Positions 3,385 to 4,293 of a stretch of DNA of 8,652 bases are shown piece after piece. The position numbers and the translations under genes were made by a program. Source of the DNA: a virus (taxonomy: Duplodnaviria; Heunggongvirae; Uroviricota; Caudoviricetes). The number at the start of each line of letters is the position of its first letter. Position 1 is the stretch's first letter. The notes under the pieces are model-generated. The model made no database searches and was not told the DNA's origin. It saw only the letters and a program-made list of their open reading frames with translations. Where the stretch lies: positions 1 to 8,652 of the IMG/VR virus record IMGVR_UViG_2648501437_000024; one strand, given 5' to 3'.

Positions 3385-4293
3385 ATGATTGGTAAGTTGT
3401 CTGATTCTTTGATTGAAAATAAATACAACGAATTTAGAGAAGAAATATCTTTGCTTTTTGACTATTTAAATCAGATAAATGATACAACAAAGAAAAATAT
3501 AAAACGTCTTCTTAAAGAAGTGGAGTATGCACAGAATCCAGATACTATTATTAATATTAATGAAACTATTAAGATTAAGTGTGGCACAACGTTAGCTCGC
3601 CATTTATGTTCAAACCCATATACAGGTTCAACATTAGAGATAGGTAACAGCGCCATTGATTTAGAAGAAAAGATAAGATTGTGTAATACTTTGAAAAATA
3701 AACAATATCAGTGGGTTATTACTGAAGCCTATGAGTTACTGGAAGACTATATTGAGGCAATATATGTCTATACTGTATGTGTTCGAAATGATTTATGGTC
3801 CTCAAGTGATTTTGGTAAGGTTGAAGATGATGAAAATGGGAAAAGGGAAGTTTATTACAGATTATTAAAAGCAAAAAGTAACCCATCGAAAAAAATAACT
3901 AAAATTTTCAGAAATAAAATACCTGGCTTCAAAGAGATAGAAACAAACAACAAGATTGGCAAAAACTATCGCTTTAACATCAAGCTAATTGAACTACTAA
4001 GACATACAATAGTACACAATAGTGGACGATTCAATGATACAGAAAAATTTATAAATAAGGTTTTAGATGAATCTGAAATAAACGGTAAGAATAGAGTTAT
4101 TGGAGAAAGAGCTGTTAGAAGTTACATTACTAAAGTGCAAGAAGATGATATTGTGATGCTCTTAGAAAGACCATCTGAAATTTTAGGTTCTTTTGGTGGG
4201 TATTTTAACAGAGCAAAATTTTTACTAAGTGATATTTTAGAATACTCACTAATCATTAAAGAAGAACTAAAATCATATCTAGGCAATCATTAA
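3385..4293 (+). CDS. hypothetical protein, AT-rich, with Rx4H motif (possible HEPN-type RNase / abortive-infection-like protein)
   Basis: 302-aa ORF, the only long plus-strand gene in this stretch; GAGG RBS 5 nt upstream; K/N/I/E-rich protein from visibly AT-rich DNA; motif LLRHTIVHN (R-x4-H) in the C-terminal third; no Walker, HNH or GIY-YIG motif seen. Confidence 0.6.
   Translation: MIGKLSDSLIENKYNEFREEISLLFDYLNQINDTTKKNIKRLLKEVEYAQNPDTIININETIKIKCGTTLARHLCSNPYTGSTLEIGNSAIDLEEKIRLCNTLKNKQYQWVITEAYELLEDYIEAIYVYTVCVRNDLWSSSDFGKVEDDENGKREVYYRLLKAKSNPSKKITKIFRNKIPGFKEIETNNKIGKNYRFNIKLIELLRHTIVHNSGRFNDTEKFINKVLDESEINGKNRVIGERAVRSYITKVQEDDIVMLLERPSEILGSFGGYFNRAKFLLSDILEYSLIIKEELKSYLGNH

Follow-up and report, generated by a model that had tools for sequence, protein, structure and literature searches.

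A predicted stand-alone HEPN-like ribonuclease gene carried as exchangeable cargo by SSU5/pECOH89-like phage-plasmids of Escherichia coli

The stretch of viral DNA described here comprises 8,652 nucleotides (nt) of the IMG/VR record IMGVR_UViG_2648501437_000024 and is called the window in the following. At 3385..4293 on its plus strand lies an open reading frame (ORF) of 302 amino acids (aa) that falls into an unannotated family (PHROG 35492) and is predicted to code for a stand-alone HEPN-like ribonuclease (RNase). This gene starts with ATG and has a Shine-Dalgarno-like AGAGG (3375..3379, plus strand, read from the sequence) 5 nt upstream of the start codon. Its left neighbour is a gene for a grxA-type glutaredoxin (2966-3211, assigned by ORF call and annotation), and on its right side follow tRNA-Ser(UGA) at 4474-4560, tRNA-Thr(UGU) at 4774-4849 and tRNA-Asn(GUU) at 4852-4926. 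All of these neighbours are located on the minus strand and the ORF converges on the array of three tRNA genes facing it. Near-identity to known elements (98% to Escherichia phage CMS-2020a and phage Cyrano in BLAST, and 99.9% to plasmid pECOH89 across the integrase and grxA genes) identifies the 8.65-kb window at the sequence level as part of an SSU5/pECOH89-like phage-plasmid of E. coli. The gene content, which includes a CobT-like gene, is also consistent with an SSU5-like phage-plasmid. An earlier note on this DNA had described the ORF correctly but had considered it the only long plus-strand gene; a 128-aa helix-turn-helix (HTH) repressor-like gene (1270-1656, ORF call and annotation) is found likewise on the plus strand.

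The ORF is visibly richer in adenine and thymine than its flanks, as the earlier note had already recognized. Its content of guanine and cytosine (GC) is 0.294, and that of the whole cassette at 3212..4293 (plus strand), which consists of the ORF and its own upstream region, is 0.288, compared with 0.448 in the rest of the window and 0.44-0.50 in the neighbouring genes. At third codon positions (GC3) the value is 0.23 for the ORF versus 0.52 for the gene of an ATP-dependent DNA ligase (6516-7838, minus strand, ORF call and annotation). Comparison with Cyrano by BLAST together with the junctions observed in plasmids delimits the cassette as swappable cargo. The slot occupied by it is bounded on the left by the start codon of grxA (first base at 3211, minus strand) and on the right by a backbone hairpin at 4298-4317. 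Homology to Cyrano ends at 3211 and restarts at 4294, which is the base after the ORF stop codon, and Cyrano fills the slot with a minus-strand gene of the Gp49/Sf6-gp66 family.

In several plasmids the junctions reveal the same flanks (left '...gtcat' immediately before the junction, right 'caaaaaaGGGGCCGAAGCCCCttt') around at least four different fillings. These are the window ORF itself, a 56-59% identical allele of the same family (L014, pMRY16-002_2), an unrelated but equally AT-rich 420-aa protein with a GC content of 0.31 and an N-terminal membrane segment, and the mentioned Gp49 gene. The 420-aa occupant is encoded in SSU5-like E. coli plasmids (L015:719-1981; L016:721-1983; L017:721-1983) and its own family is present in 138 plasmids; it has no match in Pfam or PADLOC, is unrelated to the window ORF as well as to DS-40 from the DefensePredictor paper, and represents a candidate for another uncharacterised conflict gene. 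In the Klebsiella phage pJN2-26 a 38%-identical homologue of the window protein resides in the equivalent position just upstream of the tRNAs of this phage. The family alleles differ by 40-62% in protein while the backbones are 74-98% identical in DNA. The integrase-grxA backbone was detected in approximately 730 plasmids, 58 of which have the ORF family, and the window allele is carried by 27 plasmids. When 5,426 complete E. coli genomes were screened, the exact cassette turned up in 19, each time on a plasmid of approximately 110 kb and never on a chromosome.

The separate acquisition proposed by the earlier note is well supported because the cassette is exchanged as a block between conserved flanks, because alternative fillings exist and because of the distribution of the cassette. 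The same compositional bias was observed in about 53 of the roughly 54 family loci that were surveyed for their neighbourhoods, where the GC content of the ORF is below that of its own locus; examples are Methylobacter (0.35 in the ORF and 0.52 in the surroundings), a deltaproteobacterial metagenome-assembled genome (0.32 and 0.63) and Pseudomonas (0.49 and 0.54). The fallback of the note, an unrelated moron gene, comes close as far as the genome organisation is concerned, which is that of a moron-like cargo cassette. In the literature searched, no description of a slot between the grxA start codon and the terminator of the tRNA operon or of its fillings was found, and with the boundaries given above a cargo slot of clinically relevant phage-plasmids is newly delineated.

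The right boundary is formed by the GC-rich hairpin AAAGGGGCCGAAGCCCCTTT (4298..4317, not assigned to one strand), which was recognized by a terminator scan and by the comparison of plasmid junctions as the backbone terminator of the tRNA operon. It begins 4 nt past the ORF stop codon and is separated by 157 nt from the end of tRNA-Ser. The hairpin is kept in plasmids with every type of slot filling and, judged from the alignments, it is part of the conserved backbone and not of the ORF cassette, because homology to the ORF-less Cyrano restarts exactly at 4294. A terminator shared in both directions had been suggested for this site. The convergence of the ORF and the tRNA genes on the hairpin is evident, but the consensus scan scores the minus strand only, and the U-tract on the plus strand (TTTGGATTTTG) is interrupted. 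Function in both directions is plausible and the hairpin may also end the ORF transcript. Upstream of the ORF a promoter scan detected no plus-strand sigma-70-like site, and neither tandem repeats nor a repeat array are present there.

To explore the extent of the protein family, 1.84 billion cluster representatives were searched exhaustively with HMMER, which returned 312 representative clusters at E ≤ 1e-3 and 194 at E ≤ 1e-10. Almost all members have 280-320 aa (typically about 290-300), and the family is sharply bounded, i.e. an E-value limit raised to 10 returned the same 42 proteins. Its 44 loci in GTDB are distributed over Gamma-, Beta- and Deltaproteobacteria, Campylobacterota, Bacteroidales, Treponema, Nitrospira and Aminicenantes, and 11 viral contigs of IMG/VR contain a member. 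Curated collections hardly recognize the window protein: its PHROG match (phrog_35492) is a family of unknown function, PADLOC offers no family at E ≤ 10, no NCBIfam model matches, the best Pfam entry is DUF3644 with an E-value of 4.6 over the motif region discussed below, and a PDB sequence search with the single protein gave nothing relevant. According to an accession search the protein is also missing from the DefensePredictor tables.

Conservation was measured on an alignment of 107 members with a mean column identity of 29%. Besides Met1 the only invariant columns are E117, R206 and H211; H207, V210 and G214 are conserved to 99%, and at least 90% conservation is seen for N105, Y108, W110, Y116, E120, Y127, W138, R176, E186 and N189. 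The peaks are located in two helical stretches (aa 93-133 and 195-215), and the mean frequency of the top residue is 0.57-0.60 in the core helices versus 0.25-0.30 in aa 1-92. The earlier note had drawn attention to LLRHTIVHN, which is indeed found at aa 204-212 and includes RHTIVH (aa 206-211, nt 4000-4017) as the sole match to the Rx4-6H signature in the protein. A lone match of this kind in 302 aa is about what chance would produce; it gains significance because R206 and H211 are two of the three invariant columns other than Met1. Judged from this alignment the motif is not a chance match, and no other feature of the family is as highly conserved.

Some further similarities were encountered in the searches with family members. 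The helical region at aa ~93-170 (window 3661-3894; NKQYQW..EAYE.FED...Y....FW) shows a recurrent weak similarity to flavin-dependent halogenases, seen with CmlS (PDB 3i3l, residues 350-435, E 0.0025), with the NCBIfam model halo_CmlS, which 4 of 40 members match, and with a PHROG family named 'tryptophan halogenase', matched by one member out of 107. The NCBIfam model of TrmL, a tRNA 2'-O-methyltransferase, matches 4 of 40 members (best E 2e-5). This match is probably spurious; a phmmer comparison of E. coli TrmL with the family reached at best an E-value of about 0.01, mapping to aa 126-190, and yielded nothing meaningful. Nor did phmmer comparisons of E. coli MtlR and RnlA with the family members give a meaningful result.

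HEPN domains are defined as four-helix up-down bundles with an Rx4-6H motif at the end of helix-3 that runs into the loop before helix-4. The motif arginine is directly followed by a polar N, D or H, an acidic residue in helix-2 near the motif is often conserved, inserts between helices 2 and 3 are frequent, and non-catalytic HEPN domains have usually lost the Rx4-6H motif (Anantharaman et al. 2013, PMC3710099). An AlphaFold2 model was built from 40 family sequences (predicted local distance difference test, pLDDT, 87.5; predicted template modelling score, pTM, 0.85). In this model, helix 2-50, a low-confidence loop and a beta-hairpin (69-91) make up the N-terminal part (aa 1-92, 3385..3660, plus strand), which is variable in the alignment and could possibly be a sensor, regulatory or oligomerisation part. 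The conserved helix 93-133 (3661..3783, plus strand) follows with N105, Y108, W110, Y116, E117 (nt 3733-3735), E120 and Y127 and is, on the basis of the model, a candidate for the HEPN helix with the conserved acidic residue. After a cluster of short helices comes helix 195-212, the C-terminal end of which holds R206-H207-T-I-V-H211 as an Rx4H motif (codons 4000..4017, plus strand), and the chain continues with a loop, helix 219-229 and more short elements, both helices and strands, before it ends in a C-terminal helix (276-300).

In several respects these features resemble the published definition. The Rx4-6H motif is conserved with R206 and H211 invariant in 107 members, a polar residue (H207, 99%) comes after the motif arginine, and in the secondary structure of the AlphaFold2 model, which is the only source for this placement, the motif lies at the end of helix-3. 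A four-helix up-down bundle superposable on solved HEPN domains was rated as present in the predicted model. DUF3644, which itself is a HEPN family, appears as sub-threshold Pfam match in 4 of 107 members (best E 0.0065) and Csx1/Csm6 of PADLOC in 2 of 107 (E 0.0033); both matches are at noise level but they recur and are counted in favour of a HEPN protein because both models are HEPN models. The position of the motif, the histidine after the arginine and the insert match the definition, and the invariant upstream glutamate is a candidate for the acidic residue. The protein quite probably belongs to the HEPN superfamily, and R206, H207 and H211 are its predicted catalytic residues.

Throughout the surveyed loci the gene is solitary. 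All-against-all BLAST revealed neither recurring neighbours within three genes nor recurring ORFs of 25-110 aa within 400 bp, besides those of duplicate loci, and the ORF is a one-gene unit. Its homologues are found as cargo of a conjugative element (ICE) in Pseudomonas, in a Mu-like prophage between mor and lysis genes, in a Mu-type transposable element next to TacAT and AbiEii, and in a chromosomal islet with HicAB, Phd and a gene of the OLD family as neighbours. A census of 148 genes within two positions, based on PADLOC and Pfam, contains PDC-S15, PDC-S57, PDC-S13, MADS, components of type I, IIG and IV restriction, PD-Lambda-1, ThsB, PD-T7-5, Avs4, ToxN, DUF4145, nSTAND NTPases, HicAB, TacAT, AbiEii, integrases and Bro-N. 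Such neighbourhoods are the typical signature of defence or conflict cargo.

With moderate confidence we consider the window protein to represent a new family of HEPN-superfamily RNases that would act as a single-gene abortive-infection or exclusion factor; the gene travels as AT-rich swappable cargo in the described slot of SSU5/pECOH89-like elements. In the proposed mechanism helix 93-133 with E117 and helix 195-212 with R206-H207-x3-H211 would together build the active site of an endoribonuclease that needs no metal and in which E117 assists R206, H207 and H211. By analogy with other HEPN enzymes, two subunits of a homodimer would most likely be required to complete this site. The variable aa 1-92, the insert after the motif or both might hold the enzyme in a latent state, and a trigger brought in by an invading phage or plasmid would switch it on. 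Cleavage of RNA (tRNA or mRNA) could then arrest translation and abort the infection, by which the resident phage-plasmid and the host clone would be protected.

Several observations weigh against this interpretation. At the profile level, homology to an established HEPN family is missing: Pfam, NCBIfam, PADLOC and PHROG scans of 40-107 members yielded, apart from phrog_35492, matches at noise level and no link to a curated HEPN family, and the family profile found no HEPN chain among PDB sequences, the CmlS halogenase being the best hit. Structure prediction with a subsequent Foldseek search, which the earlier note had proposed as a check, gave a confident model yet no significant match in PDB or BFVD, neither to HEPN proteins nor to others. 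R206 and H211 are equated with the HEPN catalytic positions by predicted secondary structure and not by superposition. Although E117 is invariant, its context is E-x2-E-D and not the typical Ex3[K/R]. A solitary RNase would be toxic if it were active all the time, and the auto-inhibition proposed above is purely a postulate. Proximity, patchy distribution and atypical composition agree with cargo of defence or mobile elements, but the neighbour data are family counts and not a background-controlled enrichment. Finally, a search of literature and supplements for WP_024269780 and WP_096488236 found no study of the protein.

The same evidence has to be weighed for other explanations. The protein might not be a HEPN protein at all, with the helical bundle and the RHxxxH motif being convergent and serving another activity; the lacking HEPN match in Foldseek, the lacking profile link of a family so sharply bounded and the odd recurrent halogenase similarity of helix 93-133 speak for it, but motif composition and helix-end position fit the published definition simultaneously, with the invariant upstream glutamate as a candidate for the acidic residue, and we consider this reading unlikely. 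It is likewise improbable that a HEPN-like fold is used for something other than a defence nuclease, for instance by an RNA- or nucleotide-binding regulator (cf. MtlR, KNTase C-domain) or by a counter-defence or host-takeover factor. That R, H and E are strictly invariant in members from different phyla is the catalytic signature, and most members reside in bacterial chromosomes, ICEs and defence-type neighbourhoods instead of lytic phages, even if the window gene itself belongs to a phage, whose accessory genes frequently serve anti-defence, and a faint match to a PHROG 'anti-restriction nuclease' exists (aa 20-60, E 0.0029). An addiction toxin, which would stabilise the low-copy phage-plasmid by post-segregational killing together with an unrecognised antitoxin, for example a small RNA, a cis element or some factor of the host, would agree with the resemblance of fold and motif to HEPN toxins such as HepT (5yep_B, 7ae2), with the need of non-mobilisable ~110-kb plasmids for stable inheritance and with the HicAB, Phd and TacAT modules adjoining some homologues. 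We regard it as quite unlikely: no partner ORF of any size is conserved in about 54 loci, no repeats like those of ToxI or AbiF lie upstream, most SSU5-like plasmids do without the gene (which is found in 58 of about 730 with the integrase-grxA backbone), and many homologues form single-gene islets in chromosomes, which have hardly any use for addiction.

The pairing of a nuclease with replacement tRNAs, put forward in the earlier note, would mean that an anticodon nuclease works as a unit with tRNA-Ser, -Thr and -Asn, cutting the tRNAs of host or competitor and supplying replacement or resistant ones. The gene adjoins the tRNA array in every SSU5-like plasmid that carries the family, ORF and array converge on one hairpin, and ApeA, DARNA and PrrC are stand-alone HEPN anticodon nucleases (bioRxiv 10.64898/2026.01.26.701840, 10.64898/2026.02.22.705581). 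On the other hand, Cyrano has the Ser, Thr and Asn genes without the ORF, 1,218 plasmids match the tRNA region as opposed to 27 with the allele and 58 with the family, the Thr and Asn genes have counterparts of about 90% identity in P1, P7 and D6, and the slot next to these tRNAs is filled by unrelated genes in other elements. None of the 13 scanned loci outside phage-plasmids has an adjacent tRNA array, and the content of the array varies independently of the ORF (extra Tyr, missing Thr, 182-bp insert). Because array and ORF occur independently, the nuclease-tRNA module is not supported as a conserved unit and such a unit is very unlikely. The array belongs to the backbone of SSU5- and P1-like elements and lies outside the functional unit of the ORF, and the position of the ORF beside the tRNAs is a coincidence of the backbone and not a module. 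A tRNA could still be the substrate, since ApeA, DARNA and PrrC cut anticodon loops, which is a prior by analogy and not evidence from the locus. We give hardly any credence to the variant that the protein is an anticodon-loop nuclease whose place beside the tRNA-Ser/Thr/Asn genes of the phage-plasmid is functional, with the plasmid tRNAs buffering or escaping the nuclease. If it were true, the phage-plasmid would shut down translation in competing phages or plasmid-free cells while its own lytic programme stays translatable, and backbone tRNA array and swappable nuclease would constitute a self-immune exclusion module.

For the favoured interpretation, i.e. a stand-alone HEPN-type RNase of conflict systems, the closest counterparts are ApeA, DARNA (PD-T7-3), DS-11, Ishtar and the lactococcal AbiD/AbiF, AbiJ, AbiU2 and AbiV, which likewise consist of a single protein without obligatory partner. 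They share with the window protein the Rx4H motif with a polar residue after the arginine and a helical core of HEPN type, as well as the patchy distribution on mobile elements and in defence islands. ApeA and DARNA cause abortive infection by cleavage of tRNA anticodons (bioRxiv 10.64898/2026.01.26.701840, 10.64898/2026.02.22.705581) and Ishtar is a monogenic HEPN anti-plasmid factor. None of their Pfam or PADLOC models matches the window family; models of Abi_2 (AbiD/AbiF), AbiJ, AbiU2, AbiV, ApeA, PD-T7-3/DARNA and PD-T4-2 are absent among the matches of the 107 members. The architectures are also different. In the window protein of ~300 aa, the variable helix and hairpin come first and the predicted HEPN-like core occupies the middle and C-terminal part. 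In DARNA and Ishtar the HEPN domain is N-terminal and is followed by a 300-aa Pds5-like domain and by a beta-rich C-domain, respectively, whereas DS-11 combines HEPN with a CBS domain.

Other HEPN enzymes depend on partners or additional domains. HepT (DUF86, HI0074, SO_3166) has about 130 aa and is always paired with the MNT nucleotidyltransferase antitoxin, in contrast to the window protein with 302 aa, extra elements, no conserved neighbour and no DUF86 match among hidden Markov models (HMMs). PrrC and RloC are HEPN-type RNases in phage defence, and the PrrC family, from which the tRNA idea of the earlier note derives, occurs on SSU5- and P1-group phage-plasmids (bioRxiv 10.1101/2025.09.12.675607). 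Both begin with an ATPase domain of the ABC type, and their genes lie within type I restriction-modification loci or are linked to them (PMC3710099), whereas the window protein is all-alpha with one hairpin, matches no P-loop or ATPase family and no PrrC/RloC HMM, and has grxA and tRNA genes as neighbours in place of restriction-modification genes. RnlA and LsoA (RNase LS) are phage-defence toxins with a HEPN catalytic domain on prophages and plasmids; they need the adjacent antitoxin RnlB or LsoB, while the window family has no conserved downstream gene. Alignment of the family profile with E. coli RnlA by hhalign gave a probability of 0.1%. Membership in Abi_2/AbiD/AbiF, RnlA/LsoA, PrrC or Swt1, the families named by the earlier note, is not supported, given the lack of any Pfam, PADLOC or NCBIfam match, of an ATPase domain and of a partner gene. 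With respect to its genomic position, the cassette is reminiscent of moron and defence hotspots in temperate phages (P2/P4 hotspots, P1 accessory loci), which likewise have conserved flanks and interchangeable AT-rich cargo that is independently transcribed and ends at a terminator.

For the specialist this would be an unannotated family of a known type, namely of stand-alone HEPN-type conflict RNases, and a useful candidate defence gene without being a surprise. If the prediction holds, the bacterial immune repertoire would gain a widespread family of HEPN RNases that are compact (about 300 aa) and encoded by a single gene. Current censuses of defence systems miss it because the annotations of Pfam, NCBIfam, PADLOC v2 and PHROG fail to recognize it. 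The SSU5/pECOH89-like phage-plasmids spread CTX-M-15 in E. coli, and exclusion genes on these elements could influence which phages and plasmids coexist with them. Furthermore, the family would offer a clean test case for a solitary HEPN enzyme that is kept inactive without an antitoxin. A more general lesson is that a nuclease-like gene adjoining a phage tRNA array is no evidence for a module unless co-occurrence has been checked.

Beyond the cassette some features of the surrounding backbone deserve to be mentioned. The tyrosine integrase gene (1651-2754, minus strand, ORF call and annotation) and the repressor-like gene at 1270-1656 are convergent with a 6-bp overlap of their 3' ends, and this layout is also kept in Cyrano, pJN2-26 and pMRY16-002_2. 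Between integrase and grxA a second variable slot is apparent. It measures 84 bp in the window (2904-2987) and ~880 bp in Cyrano (3810-4688), where it carries a 184-aa plus-strand ORF, and in the Klebsiella phage pJN2-26 (2250-4000) it contains a YafO-family toxin, a colicin-E1-immunity-like protein and another ORF.

The tRNA array exists in the variants Ser-Thr-Asn (window), Ser-Thr-Tyr-Asn (pMRY16-002_2, L014 4576-5133) and Ser-Asn (pJN2-26, L002 6664-6972). Directly 3' of tRNA-Ser, between this gene and the terminator hairpin and in backbone DNA common to Cyrano and pJN2-26, lies a 20-nt inverted repeat (4394-4413 / 4452-4471, 95% complementary, 38-nt loop) that could be a processing element, a terminator element or a recombination site. 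A 182-bp segment between tRNA-Ser and tRNA-Thr (4578-4759) is missing in Cyrano and is flanked by an imperfect 23-nt direct repeat (4555-4577, 4760-4782) containing a tRNA 3' end. The Rfam small RNA family STnc100 matches at 4522-4706 on the minus strand in full length but just below the threshold (44.8 bits versus a gathering score of 47, E 6.5e-8), and the 182-bp segment folds better than its shuffled versions with a z-score of -2.8.

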